A stretch of DNA of 64,000 nt from a virus. The stretch lies in the IMG/VR virus record IMGVR_UViG_3300032267_001484, one strand, 5' to 3'. Positions 1,884-64,000 of the stretch are shown one piece after another. A model generated the notes under the pieces. The model ran no database searches, had not been told where the DNA came from, and was given only the letters and a program-made list of their open reading frames with translations. The position numbers were made by a program, and so were the translations under genes. How positions within the stretch are numbered: position 1 is the stretch's first letter; the number at the start of each line of letters is the position of its first letter.

Positions 1884-2123
1884 TTATCCTTCTTCAGGTC
1901 CTTGATTCTTTTTATTGATAAATTTATCAACAGAGGATATACCAAAGCAACCCAATGTTAATACCATAAAGGCATTGAATATAAATTCTTGCACTACTAA
2001 TTCTCTACCTAAATAACCAGTAACAATATCGGCTGCAGCAAAGCCAATCATAATAAGGAATGCAATAAACCCAATGATAGATTTTTCATTAATATCATTG
2101 CTGTCTTTAAATAACTTCATCAT
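1884..2123 (-). CDS. two-TM membrane protein, holin-like
   Basis: Two TM helices, charged C-terminus; late motif upstream at ~2198. Confidence 0.55.
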   Translation of the reverse strand: MMKLFKDSNDINEKSIIGFIAFLIMIGFAAADIVTGYLGRELVVQEFIFNAFMVLTLGCFGISSVDKFINKKNQGPEEG

Positions 2124-2151
2124 AGTCTTTTAATTTTTAAATGGTTTAAAT

Positions 2152-2186
2152 AAAAAAAGGTTGCATACTTTTCAGCATACAACCTT
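2152..2186 (-). terminator. intrinsic terminator
   Basis: AAGGTTG...CAACCTT stem followed by a T-run on the minus strand. Confidence 0.6.
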
Positions 2187-2214
2187 GAATTACGGCCATA
2201 AATATGTGAAATAC

Positions 2215-2400
2215 TTATTTCACCTCAGTACCGTCTTGGATTCCTCCACCCACAACAACTGTATCAACTACAACAGCAGTATCTTGTGCAAGGATTGAAT
2301 CAACAATGAATGCTGAGTCACTAGCTACTGTAGATTCTTCTGATCCACTACAAGAAATCAAAGCCATAACCATGGCAATTGCGAAAATTGTCTTTTTCAT
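2215..2400 (-). CDS. small acidic lipoprotein
   Basis: MKK plus hydrophobic core plus lipobox LISC. Confidence 0.7.
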   Translation of the reverse strand: MKKTIFAIAMVMALISCSGSEESTVASDSAFIVDSILAQDTAVVVDTVVVGGGIQDGTEVK

Positions 2401-2422
2401 CTATATTTGGTTTAAAATTTAC

Positions 2423-2614
2423 TTATCCTTCTTCGTGCTCAATAATAACATCAACTGAATCTTTACCATCTATCATAATGGTATCAATTGTAGTTGTGTT
2501 TGAGTCAATTTTCAATGTATCACCTTTACTATTTGAGTAAATGTAAATATTGGTTGTTGACCCCCCACAGGAGACTAAGAATACAGAGGCAATAATAATA
2601 ACTAACTTTTTCAT
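2423..2614 (-). CDS. small acidic lipoprotein
   Basis: MKK plus hydrophobic core plus lipobox LVSC. Confidence 0.7.
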   Translation of the reverse strand: MKKLVIIIASVFLVSCGGSTTNIYIYSNSKGDTLKIDSNTTTIDTIMIDGKDSVDVIIEHEEG

Positions 2615-2627
2615 AATATATTTTGTT

Positions 2628-3017
2628 TGGTGGAGATAGTGGGATTCGAACCCACGTCTTCGAAAGCGACAATAATACTAACGTCTCACATGCTTAGATC
2701 TAAATTGCTTTTGATCAGTAAGGGCTGACCTTTATGGTCGTTTCCACCACTTGATTTTATGACTATCAAGAAAACTAATTCACAGTCCTTATTTAATGAG
2801 TCGATCGTGAATACTCAGTGGTTTTCTGTTCCTAGGTAACTCACACCCGGTGCGGATTAAGCTGCAAGAGCGTAATCGGCGCCTACGAAAGACATCAAGT
2901 CTTCGAAGGTCATAGTTGACATTTCGTCATTTATTGTTTAGTATCTTCTAAGGCGGTATACTCAAACGCCTGCATGTAGTATCATCTCAACATCCGAATC
3001 GATACCATGTTATCCCC
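2628..3017 (-). ncRNA. ssrA: tmRNA
   Basis: 5' GGGGATA / 3' TATCTCC-A-CCA acceptor stem with G3.U wobble; T-arm GTGGG-TTCGAAT-CCCAC; internal tag ORF (2857-2928) ending YALAA*. Confidence 0.95.
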
Positions 3018-3022
3018 ATATG

Positions 3023-3340
3023 TTAAAGAACTTCTTCCTTTTTCTTTCTAGATTTTTTATCTAGGATTTTTTTAATTTCAGCACACAATTCATATTCCTC
3101 AATCGCAATCAAATCATTCATACAATTCTTAAGTAATTCATTGTATTGTGATTTTTCAATACTAAATATTAGACTTGACATATCCTTAAATGTAATATCA
3201 AATATGTCAATTTGTGGTTTACTACGCTTTACAGCACTTATTACACACTTAGTCATTTTTAAGATTAATCCTGGATCTCGATCCTTCATTGCTTTAATGA
3301 ATTCTTGATTATCCTTAAATTGTAAATAATGACATGCCAT
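3023..3340 (-). CDS. protein with C-terminal UVR (UvrB/C)-like helix pair
   Basis: LIAIEEYELCAEIKK motif; paralogue-like to 6829..7128. Confidence 0.65.
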   Translation of the reverse strand: MACHYLQFKDNQEFIKAMKDRDPGLILKMTKCVISAVKRSKPQIDIFDITFKDMSSLIFSIEKSQYNELLKNCMNDLIAIEEYELCAEIKKILDKKSRKKKEEVL

Positions 3341-3350
3341 AATAATAAAT

Positions 3351-3662
3351 ATTAGTTACTGTCTTCGACCTATTTATTTGTTATTTGTTATTTGTTAATT
3401 TGTTTTCTAATTTATCTAAACGTGAATCCATTGAACGAGTAATGTCATCAGCACGATCTGCTATTTCTTTGTAAACATTACTTATTTCATGGCTAAAATA
3501 CCTTTCTGTAGTTTCTAAATATTCTTTTACTTTATTTACCTTAACAAAAGCGTAAACAGCAACTATTGTTGTAGCAATAACCACCACAAACGCTATCCCT
3601 AAAATGAATGATAGTGTTTCCATAATTTGTTTTTCCTTATATGTCAAAGAACAGTAACTAAT
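3351..3662. repeat. inverted repeat pair (3351-3369 / 3643-3662) enclosing one ORF
   Basis: mRNA arms ATTAGTTACTG-T-TCTTTGAC and GTCGAAGA-CAGTAACTAAT: 19 bp, one bulge, one G.U. Confidence 0.8.
3381..3623 (-). CDS. single-TM coiled-coil membrane protein (start reassigned to METLSF)
   Basis: ATG at 3623 after an A-rich leader; TM plus coiled coil. Confidence 0.7.
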   Translation of the reverse strand: METLSFILGIAFVVVIATTIVAVYAFVKVNKVKEYLETTERYFSHEISNVYKEIADRADDITRSMDSRLDKLENKLTNNK

Positions 3663-3663
3663 G

Positions 3664-3748
3664 TACCTGGAGCCGGACTCGAACCGGCACGGTCACTTCT
3701 GACCAACAGATTTTAAGTCTGTCGAGGCTGCCATTACTCCACCCAGGC
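3664..3748 (-). tRNA. tRNA-Leu(TAA)
   Basis: Cloverleaf; anticodon arm ACAGA-CTTAAAA-TCTGT, long variable arm, GTTCGAGT T-loop; CCA not encoded. Confidence 0.93.
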
Positions 3749-3754
3749 ATAATT

Positions 3755-4288
3755 TTAATACAACTTATCTAGTATAATAGATTCTACTACACTTTGTCTA
3801 CTAAATGCTTCTCGTTCCCATGGTCTCCTCTCATATTCTTCTTCCAAGATATAAACTTCACCTTGCCACTTTACTTCTTCATTTTCATATACTAATTCAC
3901 CTGATTCATACTGAAGGATATGAATTATTTCATGTGATAGAACTTCTATTGCTTCTGATTTATTAAGTGCTCCTACAAATAGATAGTATATTCCATTATG
4001 GAGTCTAATATGTGCTTTTAACTCACCATCAAATTGCTTTTTAGCAGCATCACTCATACCATTAATAACAACAGTTACTCCATTTAACCCAACACCATCC
4101 ATCCCTACTGCTAATATTGTATCATAGTAATGTATATTATCTAGTGAATTAACTATTGAATTTGTAGTTGGTAATTCTATTTGATTGAAATATTTTTCTT
4201 CACTATTACTAGTTACAGCTAAAATAGCTACAGTTACTAACCCTATTATTAGTAATGATATTCCTATTTTCTTAAAATCAAATTTCAT
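3755..4288 (-). CDS. membrane-anchored zincin-like (HEXXH) protein
   Basis: N-terminal TM; LSHEIIH and PWEREAF motifs. Confidence 0.7.
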   Translation of the reverse strand: MKFDFKKIGISLLIIGLVTVAILAVTSNSEEKYFNQIELPTTNSIVNSLDNIHYYDTILAVGMDGVGLNGVTVVINGMSDAAKKQFDGELKAHIRLHNGIYYLFVGALNKSEAIEVLSHEIIHILQYESGELVYENEEVKWQGEVYILEEEYERRPWEREAFSRQSVVESIILDKLY

Positions 4289-4444
4289 TATACAAATTTT
4301 ATTTGCAACTCTATTCTCCAGTGGAGTTGCTTTACACCGCTAACTGACGATTTAGAGGGGTAGTGTGCATTGTTAAGAGGCATCCCTGAGTTTTCGTTCC
4401 ACTGGCCTAGTGGCTGATAATTTAGGTGGCTCACTGTGTTCAGG

Positions 4445-4602
4445 CTGTCAAGGGAGGATTCGAACCTCCAAACTGCGATTCGATATTTGACAAAATAAGC
4501 CGGCTTTGTGGTCAACCCATATCTAAATACCTATTTCGTTTTTCAGCGCCCACGAGACGAGTGGGTGTGTTTGCCATGGATATACCCTTTCACCACTTGA
4601 CA
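4445..4602 (-). ncRNA. enlarged tRNA-like RNA (nominal anticodon GTC)
   Basis: Acceptor TGTCAAG/CTTGACA plus G; T-arm GGAGG-TTCGAAT-CCTCC; anticodon-like arm CCCAC-TCGTCTC-GTGGG; ~80-nt insertion in the variable region. Confidence 0.75.
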
Positions 4603-4603
4603 A

Positions 4604-4834
4604 TTAAAAGATTTTACTTTGTTGTCTGCGCTTAGCTTCTTCAGCTTCCTTTACTAAACGAATCCAAGTCAAACTAGCATCTACAACAGCAAGTACAGGA
4701 GCAAATGGAAGAATAAATAATGTTTCAAGACCTGGTGTAGGACCAATTGGGCTATTACCAAAATGGTGTTTGTAACTAACACTCATTCTCCAAATGCAAT
4801 ATACTATGCTTACTATGTAAATGTACCAAATCAT
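4604..4834 (-). CDS. small membrane protein
   Basis: Two hydrophobic segments; promoter directly upstream. Confidence 0.7.
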   Translation of the reverse strand: MIWYIYIVSIVYCIWRMSVSYKHHFGNSPIGPTPGLETLFILPFAPVLAVVDASLTWIRLVKEAEEAKRRQQSKIF

Positions 4835-4853
4835 ATTATTTATTTATATAACG

Positions 4854-4885
4854 TAAATATAATACTTTTCTTTGCTAAAACCAAA
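4854..4885 (-). promoter_or_regulatory. Bacteroidota sigma-A-type promoter
   Basis: TTTG-N20-TATATTTA. Confidence 0.7.
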
Positions 4886-4938
4886 TTTTCTTTAATATTT
4901 ATACTCGATCTATATTTTTTAATTAAAACCAATTTATC

Positions 4939-5109
4939 ATGAAAGATCAAGTATTAGGCCTTGTTAGACACGCACTTACATTTGTAGGTGGTATTATCAT
5001 TGCCAAAGGTTTAGTTGACGACGTATTGTTCCAAGAAATCGCTGGTGGTGTAATAACACTTGTAGGCGCTATCTGGTCTATAGCTTCTAAAAAGAAAGCA
5101 AACGTTTAA
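4939..5109 (+). CDS. putative two-TM holin (56 aa)
   Basis: MKDQVLGLVRHALTFVGGIIIAKG...GAIWSIASKKKANV; own AATATTTATA motif (4894-4903) and terminator; not in ORF track. Confidence 0.75.
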   Translation: MKDQVLGLVRHALTFVGGIIIAKGLVDDVLFQEIAGGVITLVGAIWSIASKKKANV

Positions 5110-5130
5110 TTTATTTCTATTTTATTTACT

Positions 5131-5158
5131 AGCCGGCTGAAAAGCCGGCTTTTTTTAT
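5131..5158 (+). terminator. intrinsic terminator (probably bidirectional)
   Basis: AGCCGGCT-GAAA-AGCCGGCT followed by a T-run, between convergent units. Confidence 0.8.
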
Positions 5159-5166
5159 TAAAAAAC

Positions 5167-5265
5167 AGGAAAGCAGAAGATGGGTGCGTGGACATCTACT
5201 TTTACGATTGGCGTTACTATCCGATCAGGTCAGGTATTACCCTGCAACCCTATCCCAATCAACCT
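5167..5265 (-). ncRNA. candidate structured ncRNA
   Basis: GC-rich intergenic segment; stems GATTGG/CCAATC, CAGG/CCTG, AAAGTAGA/TCTGCTTT, AGG/CCT. Confidence 0.5.
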
Positions 5266-5272
5266 TAAGTAA

Positions 5273-5479
5273 TTAATTAATTACCTCTGCTATAAGAGAC
5301 TCCGAAGCTGCTTTTACTTCAAACGCTTGTTCACCTTGATCGTTTAGATACTGAACCATTCTTGCTTCGGCTTCAGTAACTGATTGTGCATCTACTAGGT
5401 ATAATACGTTTTGTTTTTTTACTTTACCTTTATCGTCTTCTACTTTAAATTGAACTTTAACTTGGAAAAATTGTGCCAT
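5273..5479 (-). CDS. DUF4494-like protein
   Basis: YLVDAQSVTEAEAR motif typical of this Bacteroidota/phage family. Confidence 0.65.
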   Translation of the reverse strand: MAQFFQVKVQFKVEDDKGKVKKQNVLYLVDAQSVTEAEARMVQYLNDQGEQAFEVKAASESLIAEVIN

Positions 5480-5484
5480 AAACT

Positions 5485-5763
5485 TTATTTATTATAAACT
5501 GAATAATCATATAAGTATGATCTGTATTTAAGAAGTACCTTTGATAACTTACCTCTTAATTTCATATCATCATGTGATTCATCTTCCTGGCGTTGTGGTT
5601 TCATAGCCATAAAATAATCAATATCATCATTTGTTAATTTAACTTGATCAGCAAACACCATTGCTTTAGCAAAGTTAAATGAACCTCTCATTTGCATAAC
5701 TGCCATTTTTATTTCTTCAGGCAATTTAAACTCAGAAAATTGTTTAGCTAATTCGTAACGCAT
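5485..5763 (-). CDS. hypothetical protein
   Basis: ORF directly after a promoter. Confidence 0.65.
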   Translation of the reverse strand: MRYELAKQFSEFKLPEEIKMAVMQMRGSFNFAKAMVFADQVKLTNDDIDYFMAMKPQRQEDESHDDMKLRGKLSKVLLKYRSYLYDYSVYNK

Positions 5764-5782
5764 TTTTTAATTATTTATAGAT

Positions 5783-5814
5783 TAAATATACAAAAGTATT
5801 TTGCCCGAATCAAA
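5783..5814 (-). promoter_or_regulatory. Bacteroidota sigma-A-type promoter
   Basis: TTTG-N20-TATATTTA. Confidence 0.7.
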
Positions 5815-6409
5815 TAAGTCCTAAGGCTCTCATGTTTTCTAAATGATCTTCATCTAAATCCCATTCGTGTGTTACTGCTTTCGTTTGAACCACATCTTCA
5901 ACTTCTCTAACTTGGTCTGGGGTAAGTGGATCAGTAATAAGTAGAAAATAATCGTTGTAACAGAGTAACTCAAGATTATCAAGAAGATAATTATACTTAT
6001 TCCCATCCTTAAAATTTAATAGCAATGGTATTTTATAATCAGTTACTCTACGCTCACAGAAACCACAATGATAACATTCATCCTTTAAATAACCCTCAGC
6101 TATTAATCTTGACTTAATTTTTTCAACTGAAAATGATTCCCATCCTGTACCTGTTTCAACTATATTTTTAACATTAGGTTCTCGTCTTCGGTCAGGGAGG
6201 AATTTAGGTATTCCTTTTCCACTTTGGTTTTTATGTGTATCAAATAAAGTAGGTGAATTAGGGTCTAATTCGTCTACTCTAAATAGTTTAGCGTATGGTT
6301 TGTAATGTTGATATGAACATCCTAAGTAACGGGCAGCGGCACGATTTGATTTTGTGAAGCGCATTGCTCGCAGAATGTCTTCCTTACTAAGTGTTTTAGC
6401 TGCCGGCAT
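5810..6409 (-). CDS. HTH plus degenerate HNH-like domain protein
   Basis: SNRAAARYLGCSY HTH; CYHCG...DGNKYNYLLDNLELLCYN with the HNH histidines replaced. Confidence 0.65.
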   Translation of the reverse strand: MPAAKTLSKEDILRAMRFTKSNRAAARYLGCSYQHYKPYAKLFRVDELDPNSPTLFDTHKNQSGKGIPKFLPDRRREPNVKNIVETGTGWESFSVEKIKSRLIAEGYLKDECYHCGFCERRVTDYKIPLLLNFKDGNKYNYLLDNLELLCYNDYFLLITDPLTPDQVREVEDVVQTKAVTHEWDLDEDHLENMRALGLI

Positions 6410-7596: not shown

Positions 7597-8136
7597 TTAT
7601 AAACTCTCTAATTTCTCATCAACAATACCACAATTAACAGCATCATCTACACCAAAATACCACTCAGATTGCATAATTTTAATATTATTTAATGTTTCCT
7701 GAGTAAGTTTTGTTTTTGATATTAAGTATTCATCACATATCTTATCAATGCGTTCTACTTCTTTTAATTCTTGTCTATGATGTTGTACTTTACCTTCAAT
7801 AGGATATGCCGCTTCATGATACATAAATGTAGCATTTCTACTTGCATAGCGCTCATGCCCAGCCGCGTACACTATCAAACCCATGGACATTGCTGTTCCA
7901 TAGCAAATAGTAAATATTGGAGTTCGCGAATTATCAATTGTATCTATTAAGGCAAGCCCACTATATACCTCTCCCCCAAATGAGTTGATTATTAGTTTTA
8001 TTGGTTCTACTTGCGTTTTTTTAATATCCTCTTCATTAATCTCATAAATAAGGCCTATAATATCGTTAACATTTTCTTGAGTTATTTCTCCTAATGTTAT
8101 TATTCTATTAAGTTTAACCTTATCCTGCTTCGCCAT
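7597..8136 (-). CDS. clpP: ClpP-family protease
   Basis: INSFGGEV, GTAMSMG (catalytic Ser), FMYHE (His); start reassigned to MAKQDK. Confidence 0.88.
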   Translation of the reverse strand: MAKQDKVKLNRIITLGEITQENVNDIIGLIYEINEEDIKKTQVEPIKLIINSFGGEVYSGLALIDTIDNSRTPIFTICYGTAMSMGLIVYAAGHERYASRNATFMYHEAAYPIEGKVQHHRQELKEVERIDKICDEYLISKTKLTQETLNNIKIMQSEWYFGVDDAVNCGIVDEKLESL

Positions 8137-8160
8137 ATTTTTAGGATTTCGCATAAATAT

Positions 8161-28593: not shown

Positions 28594-30204
28594 TTACATT
28601 CCAAATGCTGACAAATCAACTTCTTCTTTCTTTTTATCTGTTGGTTTATCGTGAATTACACATTCCGTCATTAGAAGTGTAACGGCAGCTGCTGCTGCAT
28701 TCTCAAGTGCACAGCGTACTACTTTAGTTGGATCAATGATACCTGATTTAAAAGCATCTATTGTTCTATCCCCTACAATATCAGGGACAGCATTTTTTTC
28801 TTTTAGAATTGAAGCCCATTCATAATAATCCTCACCAGCATTAGTTAGAATTTTATTAAGTGGAGTAGAACATGCCTTATATACAATTTGTCCTCCTAAT
28901 CCAGAATCACTATTATCCCTATTAATAATAGCATTTTTAGCACTAAATAGGGCTACACCAGCACCTGGTACAATACCTTCTTCAAGAGCAGCTTTTGTTG
29001 CTTGGAGTGCATCATCAATGCGATCTTTTCTTTCTCTCATTTCAACCTCAGTACCTCCACCTACATTAATGATAGCTACACCACCAATAATTTTAGCAAG
29101 GCGATCTTGTAGACGTTCTACTTCATAAGGTGAATTATTAGTATCAATTTGTGCTTTTAATTCTTCAATACGAGCATCAATTTGTTCAGTTTCGCCTTTA
29201 CCATCAACAATAGTAGTTGTTTCTTTACCTACAGTGATAGTTCTAGCCTGACCAAACCAACTAGTACTGAACTTTTCTAGTTTCATTCCTTTTTGAGGTG
29301 AAACTACAGTACCACCAGTCACAATAGCAATGTCTTCTAAAACTAAAGTCCTACGCTCACCAAAGTCAGGAGCCTTAACAGCAGCTACTTTCAAAATACC
29401 CCTCATTTTATTTACAATGAGTGTTGAAAGTGCTTCACCATCGATATCCTCAGCAATAATAAGCAATGACTTATTTTCCTGTGATACACGCTCAAGAATA
29501 GGAAGTAAATCCTTTACAGTACTAATCCTACCATCAAACAATAAAATCAAGGAATCATTAAGAACAGCTTGCATTGTGTTATTATCGGTTACCATATAAG
29601 GCGATTTATAACCACGATCAAATTGAAGACCTTCTACTACTTCGAGTGACGTTTCACCTGAACGAGATTCTTCTACTGTTACTACTCCATCTCTTCCTAC
29701 TTTATCAATAGCTGTAGCTACTAATTCACCAATTTCAGTATCACCATTAGCTGAGAGTGTAGCAATTTGTCTGATTTGTTTTTCATCTGTAATATCTACA
29801 GATATTGTTTTTAATTCACTAACAATATTCTTAACAGCAGTCTCAATACCATATTTTACTTGAGTAACATTAACCGATGGTTTTGAGGTCAATTCAAGTG
29901 CTTGATTTGCAATACTATATGCTAACAACGTAGATGTAGTTGTACCATCACCTGCTTGATCAACTGTTTTTTGTGCTGCTTGTTTAATTACAGTTGCAGC
30001 CATATTTTCAATTGGATCTTCTAAAGTAATGGTTTTAGCAACTGTAACACCATCCTTAGTTGAGGCTACTTGCCCATGTTCTTTTTCAATCAATACATTA
30101 CGTCCAAAAGGACCCATAGTTACAGTTACGGCATCATGTACTTTCTTAATACCTTCCTGTAGTTTTTCTTTCGCGTCGCGATCAAATTTAATTATTTTAC
30201 TCAT
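28594..30204 (-). CDS. groEL: chaperonin GroEL
   Basis: TKDGVTVAK, GDGTTT, GLQFDRGY, AVKAPDFG, GIIDPTKV. Confidence 0.97.
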   Translation of the reverse strand: MSKIIKFDRDAKEKLQEGIKKVHDAVTVTMGPFGRNVLIEKEHGQVASTKDGVTVAKTITLEDPIENMAATVIKQAAQKTVDQAGDGTTTSTLLAYSIANQALELTSKPSVNVTQVKYGIETAVKNIVSELKTISVDITDEKQIRQIATLSANGDTEIGELVATAIDKVGRDGVVTVEESRSGETSLEVVEGLQFDRGYKSPYMVTDNNTMQAVLNDSLILLFDGRISTVKDLLPILERVSQENKSLLIIAEDIDGEALSTLIVNKMRGILKVAAVKAPDFGERRTLVLEDIAIVTGGTVVSPQKGMKLEKFSTSWFGQARTITVGKETTTIVDGKGETEQIDARIEELKAQIDTNNSPYEVERLQDRLAKIIGGVAIINVGGGTEVEMRERKDRIDDALQATKAALEEGIVPGAGVALFSAKNAIINRDNSDSGLGGQIVYKACSTPLNKILTNAGEDYYEWASILKEKNAVPDIVGDRTIDAFKSGIIDPTKVVRCALENAAAAAVTLLMTECVIHDKPTDKKKEEVDLSAFGM

Positions 30205-30207
30205 ATG

Positions 30208-30498
30208 TTATTTTTCTAAAACGGCCAATAAATCTTGTTCTTTCATTACAACGTATTCTTCACCTTCAACGGTCATTTTGGTTCCACCAAAGGCAGGAAA
30301 TACTACAATTTCACCTACTTTAATGCTAGTATCAATCCAAGTCCCTGTAACCGAATAAATCCCAGGTCCTACAGCTAGTACTTCACCCATAAGTGGTTTC
30401 TCTTTACCCATGTCAGGAACAATAATGTTCCCATACATTGTGTCTGTTTCATCTTGTTGTTTAATCACCACGTGATTATGCAATGGTATTATTTTCAT
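30208..30498 (-). CDS. groES: co-chaperonin GroES
   Basis: PLHNHV, GEVLAVGPG, EQDLLAV. Confidence 0.95.
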   Translation of the reverse strand: MKIIPLHNHVVIKQQDETDTMYGNIIVPDMGKEKPLMGEVLAVGPGIYSVTGTWIDTSIKVGEIVVFPAFGGTKMTVEGEEYVVMKEQDLLAVLEK

Positions 30499-30667
30499 TT
30501 TCTATATTTTGTTTATGTTTTAAAATTGCTTCCTCTAGTATTGATAAATCAAATTCAATCGGACCATATTCCTCCATTGAATCATCAAATACTACTTTAT
30601 TATCTACTAGTTTTAAATAAGCAATCCTATCCCAGTTTGCTTCTTTTCGTATAACTAATGTTTCCAT
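30476..30667 (-). CDS. hypothetical protein
   Basis: ORF after promoter-like TTTG-N19-TATCTTCA (30672-30702). Confidence 0.6.
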   Translation of the reverse strand: METLVIRKEANWDRIAYLKLVDNKVVFDDSMEEYGPIEFDLSILEEAILKHKQNIENENNTIA

Positions 30668-30672
30668 AAAAT

Positions 30673-31198
30673 GAAGATAATGACAGGTCTTCGATTTTCA
30701 AAACTTATTTAATTGTAACCTTTTTAGGTGCTTTTTCCTCTGCATAAGGAATATCTATAATAAGCAAGCCCTTATCCATATTAGCCTCTAGTTTATTTAA
30801 ATTAAGTTTAGAAGCTATCTTCCAAGCCAAATCAAAGGAGCGGCGAGCAATACCTCTTTGGAGATATTTGCCAATAGGCACTTCTTGATCTGGTCTTTCA
30901 TGTTTAATACGTAAAATATCGCTTTCTACTTGGATGTCGAGGTCCTCTTTATTAAGACCTACTACTGCGAGTTCGAATCGTAAACCTGTTTCTGTTTCGT
31001 AAATATCAACTGGGTAGTTGATTTTATTTTCAATTGTGTTAAATTTTGAGTTGCTGTCTAGGATGTTTTTCCAAACAACATCAAATGGATCAAATGTCCA
31101 ATTACTGTGGTAACTGTTTAGTTGTGTCATAGTTTTTGTTTTGTGCTTCCCTAAGGTAAGCGGTTAATTAATAATATGAAGACCTGTCATGTATCTTC
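30673..31198. repeat. inverted repeat pair (30673-30692 / 31178-31198) enclosing hsp20
   Basis: GAAGATA-ATGACAGGTCTTC versus reverse complement GAAGATACATGACAGGTCTTC: 20 matches, one bulge. Confidence 0.85.
30705..31130 (-). CDS. small heat-shock protein (Hsp20)
   Basis: NYPVDI, ELAVVG, RGIARRSF, MDKGLLII. Confidence 0.92.
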   Translation of the reverse strand: MTQLNSYHSNWTFDPFDVVWKNILDSNSKFNTIENKINYPVDIYETETGLRFELAVVGLNKEDLDIQVESDILRIKHERPDQEVPIGKYLQRGIARRSFDLAWKIASKLNLNKLEANMDKGLLIIDIPYAEEKAPKKVTIK

Positions 31199-35449: not shown

Positions 35450-35611
35450 TTAAAATTCTTCTGCTATTCCAAGTACTTCTGCTAATATCAATAATGTACC
35501 AGTGATCACAAATTCGCCTTTAATCGTAGCAACTCCTGCTACTATTCGAAGACATGATTTAAAAAGACTAATTTTAAAATGCCAATTTGTTTTACTTTCC
35601 TTTGGTTGCAT
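35450..35611 (-). CDS. small membrane protein (53 aa)
   Basis: MQPKESKTNWHFKISLFKSCLRIVAG...AEVLGIAEEF; not in ORF track. Confidence 0.7.
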   Translation of the reverse strand: MQPKESKTNWHFKISLFKSCLRIVAGVATIKGEFVITGTLLILAEVLGIAEEF

Positions 35612-63441: not shown

Positions 63442-63927
63442 TTAGAAATTCAATACACAGTAATCCATAGCGATTGTTACAGCTAAACTAACTGCAGCAT
63501 CTGCACTCCAATCATAATCTCCAAAAGTAGCTGTTTTTACATAAGCTCCTTTTACAATCCACTCACCTACGATATCACCTACAGGGCCTAAGATATTCAA
63601 TGCTAAATCTTTCTTATAGAAATCAGAATAACCATCACGACCAGTTACTGATTCGTGTGCTAAACGAGCCCATTCCATTACGGCTTGTCCACCGGATGGG
63701 GTTACAGGATCGTATAATTCTAAAGTCATATCATTCCACTTAACTTTACCTTTTACTTTACGGTAAACGTTAATGTGGTCTAATATAATTTCACCAGCGT
63801 CAAATCCAGGAGCAGATGCTTTTTTAATCAAGTATGCAGGAATACCATCAATATACATGATAAAGCGATTCTGAACTTTAGGTTCAAATGCTGTGAACAT
63901 TATTTCGTTTGCGTCTAATACTGCCAT
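63442..63927 (-). CDS. tail tube protein (gp19-like)
   Basis: FEPKVQNRF, W..MTLELYDP, QAVMEW, GDYDW. Confidence 0.87.
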   Translation of the reverse strand: MAVLDANEIMFTAFEPKVQNRFIMYIDGIPAYLIKKASAPGFDAGEIILDHINVYRKVKGKVKWNDMTLELYDPVTPSGGQAVMEWARLAHESVTGRDGYSDFYKKDLALNILGPVGDIVGEWIVKGAYVKTATFGDYDWSADAAVSLAVTIAMDYCVLNF

Positions 63928-63975
63928 TTTATTTTAATTTTATTGCTATTAATAAATATTAGCAACTACATTCCC

Positions 63976-64000
63976 CTATCCAGGGAATGTAGCGCCGGTT
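63976..64000 (-). CDS. 3' end of tail sheath protein (partial)
   Basis: ...TGATFPG* immediately upstream of the tube gene. Confidence 0.6.

Follow-up and report, generated by a model that had tools for sequence, protein, structure and literature searches.

Why should a phage enclose the gene of a small membrane protein in a long-range helix that starts directly behind a tRNA, and why should the upstream strand of this helix contain a word resembling the boxA of rRNA leaders? An earlier note on this locus, made from the sequence, had proposed that the mRNA mimics an rRNA processing stalk, acting through RNase III, Nus antitermination or both, and that the message is in this way excised, stabilised or circularised. 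Here we follow up this proposal using the window (the whole 64,000-nt stretch of viral DNA that was analysed), related viral loci and the rRNA (rrn) operons of Bacteroidota.

The locus and its viral context

The window is phage-like in sequence, contains approximately 30% G+C and has every gene on the minus strand, among them genes for a T4-type DNA polymerase, RNR, a DnaB-type helicase, Hsp20 and a probable GroES/GroEL pair. The closest cultured relative is Microcystis phage Mel-JY01, with a polymerase identity of just 35.7%. A DNA search with positions 2000-6000 gave tRNA-Leu genes as the sole matches among cultured phages, and viral relatives were not found in a neighbour search with protein P0003. 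One phage here combines a set of proteostasis genes (2628-3017, 7597-8154, 28594-31130), namely tmRNA, ClpP protease (Pfam E = 1e-27), GroES/GroEL and Hsp20, the GroES/GroEL pair being called probable from sequence likeness alone. The features around the enclosed gene are as follows.

3664..3748, minus: tRNA-Leu(UAA), with its 3' processing site 1-2 nt ahead of the 5' arm (ARAGORN, Rfam RF00005, sequence)
3643..3662, minus: 5' arm of the helix, variable in its outer part (3662-3653) and conserved in its inner core (sequence, repeats, fold, covariation)
3642..3652, minus: boxA core (window sequence, host rrn loci, published consensus)
3634..3638, minus: Shine-Dalgarno-like AAGGA (alignment of cassettes, fold)
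3381..3623, minus: ORF of 80 aa (P0001); TM helix at the N-terminus, coiled coil, conserved motif at the C-terminus
3351..3369, minus: 3' arm of the helix, pairing in a wobble-tolerant manner with the boxA core (sequence, repeats, fold, covariation)
3345..3352, minus: promoter-like motif ATATTTAT for the next gene (ATG 3340) (motif recurrence in the window)

Homologues of the enclosed protein, 80 to 123 aa in size and with a long, conserved coiled coil in common, are encoded on 61 viral contigs of IMG/VR, the largest of which measures 183 kb. The protein gave no tblastn match among 50,697 deposited phage records and no PHROG match, and its Pfam matches (E at least 0.0096) all fall under the curated cut-offs, so that it belongs to no known family. 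In the ESM Atlas, the nearest named clusters carry holin- or releasin-like Pfam families on some of their members, at sub-threshold level (scores below 0.9).

The promoter-like motif ATATTTAT at 3345-3352 shares 2 nt with the tail of the 3' arm. It lies on the coding strand 4-40 nt 5' of approximately 17 genes (for example at 3345-3352, 31203, 38903, 43843, 51436 and 62332), and the cases in which it is merely 4 nt from the ATG would imply leaderless transcripts or very short leaders. A second recurrent word, TCGAAGAC, has five copies in the window against 0.4 expected; two lie within the tmRNA (2656-2663 and 2899-2906), the others at 3361-3368, 30687-30694 and 35546-35553, and each of the two 3' arms that bracket a gene in the window (that of the boxA cassette and that of hsp20) holds a single copy.

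A 19-bp helix brackets the gene

On the minus strand, positions 3662-3651 form 12 perfect base pairs with 3351-3362, a segment that was also recovered by an inverted-repeat search, and beyond a bulged U3650 another 7 bp join 3649-3643 to 3363-3369, including the wobble pair U3646.G3366. The helix totals 19 bp (12+7) with one bulged U and one G.U, and an optional extension past a 1x1 mismatch (3641-3639 with 3374-3372) provides three more. The 5' arm starts at A3662, 2 nt past the tRNA-Leu discriminator (A3664; CCA is not encoded), and the 3' arm begins 11 nt past the stop codon TAA at 3383-3381, or 6 nt when the extension is counted. The earlier note had reported a 19-bp stem around a membrane-protein gene right after tRNA-Leu, with its arms 2 nt after the discriminator and just past the stop codon and with a single non-Watson-Crick pair, G.U on the transcribed strand; in its coordinates and its description this account is correct, U3646.G3366 being the pair in question, and the stem lies far beyond chance.

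Folding of 3664-3345 predicts the helix in the MFE as well as the centroid structure (z = -3.4; 0/100 shuffles as stable). The duplex has an energy of -24.9 kcal/mol, whereas 27,254 arm pairs sampled from the window had a mean of -6.5 (sd 3.0), and only the stem and one other, unrelated pair reached -24.9 kcal/mol or below. This other pair, 63971-64000 with approximately 63679-63708 (minus strand, below -25 kcal/mol), includes a terminator-like hairpin at the window edge. When approximately 88 ORFs of the window were scanned, a bracketing helix beat all mismatched controls only for hsp20 and the 80-aa ORF, with gene-by-gene flank pairing energies of -28.5 and -24.1, respectively, against a control minimum of -20.7. 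Neither the Shine-Dalgarno sequence of the cassette, which reads AAGGAG in most relatives, nor its AUG takes part in pairing in the MFE or the centroid fold. The conserved, strong Shine-Dalgarno sequence of the cassette contrasts with most other leaders of this phage, which are A/T-rich and SD-less.

The helix is maintained at the level of RNA

The stem is kept in approximately 35-40 distinct versions among the 61 viral loci, and in nearly all loci a helix of 18-27 bp, a length compatible with putative cleavage by RNase III, connects the leader with the sequence just past the stop codon, although related loci are phylogenetically non-independent and such counts overstate the number of evolutionary events. 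When the pairs of 35 distinct stems are tabulated with the core as anchor, the ten outermost positions vary freely yet remain paired: position -15 is G-C in 21 stems and A-U in 11, position -14 is occupied by U-A, C-G, G-C or A-U, and position -11 by C-G, U-A, A-U or U.G. The earlier note had asked for covariation of the two arms across homologous loci, and this is what was found; on a MAFFT alignment of whole cassettes, changes on both sides occur at 14 of 22 pairs, with 93 double-change cells compared with 35.9 in shuffles (0/500) and a covariation score of 0.308, against 0.171 for shuffles and at most 0.109 for slid partners. Long-range pairing that flanks a cargo and is kept by covariation, as in an rRNA stalk, is thus present at these loci; the cargo is a conserved protein-coding ORF and not rRNA.

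The kind of mismatch that is tolerated identifies the nucleic acid in which the helix acts. When leaders were aligned with reverse-complemented trailers in a fold-agnostic manner, the transition mismatches on the mRNA strand were 24 G.U and 0 A.C, and inside the folded arms the ratio was 61 to 6. This bias towards G.U on the transcribed strand, which bears out the RNA-level pairing suggested earlier from a single pair, means that the helix acts in RNA and is not a DNA repeat.

The two strands of the core behave differently. The 5' core is near-invariant, whereas its 3' partners drift by wobble, so that position -3 is U-A in 22 stems and U.G in 11, and position -2 is G.U in 23, G-C in 6 and A-U in 4 of the 35. 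An invariant 5' core facing wobbling partners indicates that this core is constrained in sequence beyond its pairing. In some relatives (L016, L019 and L055) the helix persists although the core has diverged.

We also considered whether parts of the arms are promoter elements. As an upstream box of the next promoter the 3' arm core was rejected, because its spacing to the promoter-like motif varies between 10 and 16 nt, because it is kept where a tRNA follows instead, and because the invariant core is the 5' and not the 3' one. Likewise, TTGACA as a -35 box would leave no space for a -10 box and a leader ahead of the AUG.

The ends of the helix coincide with expected RNA ends

Upstream tRNAs of seven species (Leu-UAA, Leu-UAG, Ala, Asp, Ser, Gln and Thr) end no more than 3 nt before the 5' arm in 17 distinct loci. 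The 3' arm ends at most 5 nt from the next tRNA (Met or Glu) in 10 loci. In six further distinct loci (L005, L007, L009, L013, L015 and L061) the 5' arm comes directly after a tRNA-like RNA, behind its T-arm and 3' strand, and in the remaining loci the arm is preceded by an intrinsic terminator together with a short, AT-rich word that resembles a promoter. The outer helix end therefore always lies at an expected RNA end, be it a tRNA processing site or a promoter-like word. The inner end is found 14-25 nt 5' of the AUG and 0-13 nt 3' of the stop codon, and the cassette gene is co-oriented with the flanking tRNAs in all loci.

The tRNA-like RNA is also present in the window (4443-4602, minus strand), where it is approximately 160 nt long, combines an acceptor stem of 7 bp with a canonical T-arm, and is called by neither ARAGORN nor Rfam. 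That cassettes start right behind RNAs of this type suggests that such RNAs are processed like tRNAs. Two ORF-free stretches adjoin this tRNA mimic, 4289-4442 and 5130-5275 (both minus strand), the latter ending with a strong GC hairpin followed by T's, and both may be small RNAs.

The boxA core is identical to that of Bacteroidota rRNA spacers

The boxA consensus is UGCUCUUUAACA in E. coli, GYTCTTTAANA in gamma-proteobacteria and AUGAUCUUUGAAA in B. subtilis (PMC5725501, PMC13753749). To place the core of the cassette, approximately 80 Bacteroidota rrn loci retrieved via a 16S signature were used for comparison. Their 16S-23S spacers contain AGTTCTTTGACATATTGG or the same word ending in TTGA, while the 16S leaders carry the variant ending in GAAAATATTGA. 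Positions 3652-3639 of the window (GTTCTTTGACATAT) are identical at 14/14 nt to the spacer boxA, which occurs in this identical form in nine rrn loci of Pedobacter, Sphingobacterium, Mucilaginibacter and Bacteroidia MAGs. What the earlier note had called a boxA-like word in the 5' arm accordingly matches the 23S-proximal boxA of Bacteroidota without a difference over 14 nt, and there too this word opens the 23S stalk: in Pedobacter and Sphingobacterium it lies 51-98 nt past tRNA-Ala, and its 3' half opens a long helix with sequence approximately 3,050 nt downstream, just past 23S, which is the 23S processing stalk.

Two of the phage loci (L016 and L019) carry the cassette directly after a tRNA-Ala that is 83% identical to the host spacer tRNA-Ala, and the stem of L037-type loci continues on the downstream side of boxA, which is also the arrangement in the host. 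The cassette may reasonably be derived from a host rrn spacer that was captured. The boxA match also supports a Bacteroidota host, and the host of this phage is probably a member of this phylum. The phage GroEL was uninformative for host inference, as it gave pattern-biased Sphingomonas matches only, with 41-51% identity.

Further boxA copies precede tmRNAs and tRNA arrays

The word is not confined to the cassette. Two additional features of the window are relevant here.

3021..3031, minus: second boxA, a perfect match to the gamma-proteobacterial consensus given above
2628..3017, minus: phage tmRNA, downstream of and co-directional with the cassette (ARAGORN; Rfam RF00023, 84.6 bits)

The second boxA with 3 nt adjoins the 5' end of the tmRNA (3017) and holds the stop codon of a 105-aa ORF (3340-3023). 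A boxA lies just before the 5' end of the tmRNA in 8/8 distinct phage loci with a tmRNA (for example L001, L003, L006, L008, L012 and L017), and stand-alone copies occupy early positions in large arrays, which comprise up to 24 tRNAs (L022:1854, L024:1081, L036:750, L036:3689, L038:905 and L046:1124). Four of these six follow tRNA-Ala, which is the host-like order tRNA-Ala, boxA, and 4/6 are identical to the host spacer boxA across 17 nt. A long-range partner was sought for the stand-alone copies and for the tmRNA boxA, and none was found. Of the 68 boxA copies in the phage loci, every one lies on the strand that is transcribed; the opposite strand has none. From their sequence and placement, the copies at tmRNAs and tRNA arrays would thus be maintained functional elements, standing ahead of long untranslated RNA that would otherwise be exposed to Rho.

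A second bracketed message, hsp20

The hsp20 gene of the window is bracketed by a 20-bp long-range helix with one bulge (5' arm from 31198, 3' arm to 30673, minus strand), which begins approximately 4 nt past ATATTTAT, contains no boxA and is kept, with compensatory changes, in approximately 20 distinct viral loci (L212-L244). End-clamping therefore recurs in these phages and may work independently of Nus, and the boxA would be an addition to the cassette or ancestral in it.

A model for the cassette and its alternatives

In the model that we favour and consider reasonably probable, the cassette is an rrn-style module in which a copy of the 23S-proximal host boxA, placed in a leader-trailer helix, packages the mRNA of a small membrane protein within a tRNA/tmRNA cluster. 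The helix exists, it covaries, it is stranded as RNA, it is fixed in position relative to tRNA ends and its core is identical to Bacteroidota boxA; Nus binding, antitermination, the cleaving enzymes (RNase III) and stabilisation would be plausible consequences. The boxA would emerge approximately 300 nt ahead of its complement and load host NusB-S10 and other Nus factors on RNA polymerase. The loaded factors could confer Rho resistance on the largely untranslated tRNA/tmRNA cluster, although a translated ORF would itself need no protection from Rho, and could hold the 5' arm near the RNA exit channel until the 3' arm emerges past the stop codon and a helix of 19-22 bp closes. Transcript release would then be brought about by tRNA maturation, by RNase III cleavage or by both, yielding a monocistronic mRNA with an open Shine-Dalgarno sequence and start codon and with both ends in duplex, where they would be shielded from end-dependent nucleases. 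As the outer helix end is a 3' or 5' tRNA processing site or a transcript start, ordinary tRNA maturation could be sufficient for release, and as boxA is fully base-paired in the finished helix, it could act co-transcriptionally only.

The functions proposed for boxA in this model have precedents. The boxA/Nus system provides antitermination and acts as an RNA chaperone, and boxA is also active outside rrn (PMC5725501, PMC13753749, PMC10250234, PMC8632103). The rrn complex suppresses Rho and chaperones the formation of long-range helices (PMC10250234, PMC8632103, PMC6614797), holding the leader near the exit channel and in this way enabling the leader-trailer helix to form (PMC8632103, PMC10250234).

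It is also conceivable that the helix does nothing but clamp the ends of the mRNA, for stability or to define the 3' end, and that the boxA is a relic of a captured host rrn spacer without a current Nus role. The hsp20 helix, equally conserved and covarying without a boxA, fits this idea, as does the persistence of the helix in the three loci with a divergent core. A relic would not, however, be expected to show an invariant 5' core opposite a wobbling 3' partner, which points to selection on the core sequence, and the stand-alone copies at tmRNAs and tRNA arrays argue that boxA is retained for its own sake. We therefore think this explanation unlikely, while granting it a real chance of being correct.

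Alternatively, the boxA could form part of a Nus-dependent translational or dosage switch like that of E. coli suhB, where a boxA within 50 nt of the start codon represses (PMC5725501). In the cassette, the boxA complex would hinder the ribosome until the 3' arm masks boxA and lifts the repression, thereby limiting the production of a potentially toxic membrane protein. The distance between boxA and the AUG (14-25 nt) is inside the suhB repression distance (PMC5725501), the product is a small TM/coiled-coil protein whose nearest Atlas clusters are holin- or releasin-like, if below threshold, and its Shine-Dalgarno sequence is strong in a phage with mostly SD-less leaders. Against this, a switch leaves unexplained both the coincidence of the helix end with the tRNA processing site and the hsp20 helix, the mechanism has been established in enterobacteria only, and the toxicity of this protein is putative. 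On balance we regard such a switch as rather improbable.

The earlier note had also envisaged circularisation. After tRNA excision, the adjacent 5'-phosphate and 3'-hydroxyl could be ligated to give an exonuclease-proof circular mRNA, or the ends could form a closed loop returning ribosomes to the Shine-Dalgarno sequence approximately 20 nt away. If true, either form would add a new way in which bacteria or phages make mRNA, common to the hsp20 message. Nothing was found in support of circularisation, and we consider it very improbable; mimicry of an rRNA stalk, the other part of that proposal, is supported by the helix, its covariation and the boxA identity.

There is hardly any room for a DNA-level function of the repeats, either as termini of a cassette that moves or inverts or as PeSL-type recombination sites. 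The occurrence of the cassette behind different tRNAs in different phages does suggest shuffling, but the transition mismatches (24 G.U and 0 A.C) are those of RNA, the variable outer ends and conserved inner core are the reverse of transposon ends, and the repeats are inverted whereas PeSL repeats are direct. The gene keeps a constant orientation relative to the tRNAs, and the conserved termini and variable orientation of an inverted-repeat DNA cassette are not seen.

Duplexes at mRNA ends are known to govern processing and stability in the RNase III-processed mRNAs of T7 and in the hok fold-back, the T7 sites being local intergenic hairpins and the hok fold-back blocking translation. The cassette resembles both in having duplex structure at the ends of its mRNA, but its pairing is long-range and the Shine-Dalgarno sequence is free in the predicted fold. 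A type I toxin mRNA folded back in the manner of hok and inert until processed, as a small hydrophobic protein inside a 5'-3' helix might suggest, is scarcely credible here, because the Shine-Dalgarno sequence and AUG are unpaired (MFE and centroid) where such a toxin has a sequestered start, no antisense promoter or cis antisense RNA was noticed, the protein has 80-123 aa with a long conserved coiled coil, and the same architecture is found on hsp20.

Comparison with known boxA systems

We return to the model of an rrn-style module, for which the nearest counterpart is the Bacteroidota 23S stalk, arranged in the order tRNA-Ile, tRNA-Ala, boxA, 23S. Both share a boxA word that is identical over 14-17 nt and that lies within the 5' strand of a helix pairing just 3' of the cargo, and in both a tRNA is directly upstream (tRNA-Ala in L016 and L019). 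They differ in their cargo, which is an mRNA of 240-370 nt in the phages and a 2.9-kb rRNA in the host, and in the course of the helix, which in the window extends from boxA in the upstream direction, as far as the end of the tRNA, but in the host extends downstream; the phage helix is also shorter (approximately 20 bp) and almost uninterrupted. The cassette would work like a stalk, yet it is not an rrn element.

The E. coli rrn leader-trailer system with its antitermination complex (NusA/B/E/G, SuhB and S4) is similar in having a boxA upstream or in the leader strand, long-range pairing and flanking tRNAs. It differs in that boxB and boxC were not identified in the phage cassette, in that the phage cargo is translated, and in that RNase III cleavage of the cassette is putative. 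Outside rrn, CRISPR operons have been mentioned as boxA sites (PMC13753749); the boxA of the suhB 5' UTR and of CRISPR operons likewise stands on a non-rRNA transcript, near a start codon (suhB) or ahead of long untranslated arrays, but these elements have no complementary trailer strand and are bacterial and not phage-borne. In the lambdoid nut sites, boxA and boxB act with the N protein, and the phage boxA recruits host Nus factors (PMC2724277). Here too a phage transcript carries a boxA, which in the cassette would similarly recruit Nus, but the cassette is without an evident boxB hairpin or an N-like protein and has an exact host rrn boxA set in a long-range helix.

Neither boxA in phage tRNA arrays nor an mRNA in an rrn-type stalk was found described in the literature, which is no proof of novelty. 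The types of component are known; their putative use on a phage mRNA appears to be new.

Implications

BoxA/Nus antitermination and leader-trailer helices have been regarded as devices for making rRNA. Widespread uncultivated phages appear to put this complete rRNA device on a protein-coding message among tRNA genes, in a compact natural module made up of a boxA, a 20-bp clamp and tRNA punctuation. If this is confirmed, phages can take over the machinery of rrn transcription and processing to produce mRNA, and protein genes could be expressed inside tRNA operons without terminators of their own. The boxA word could in that case also mark, by its sequence, the host phylum of these phages.
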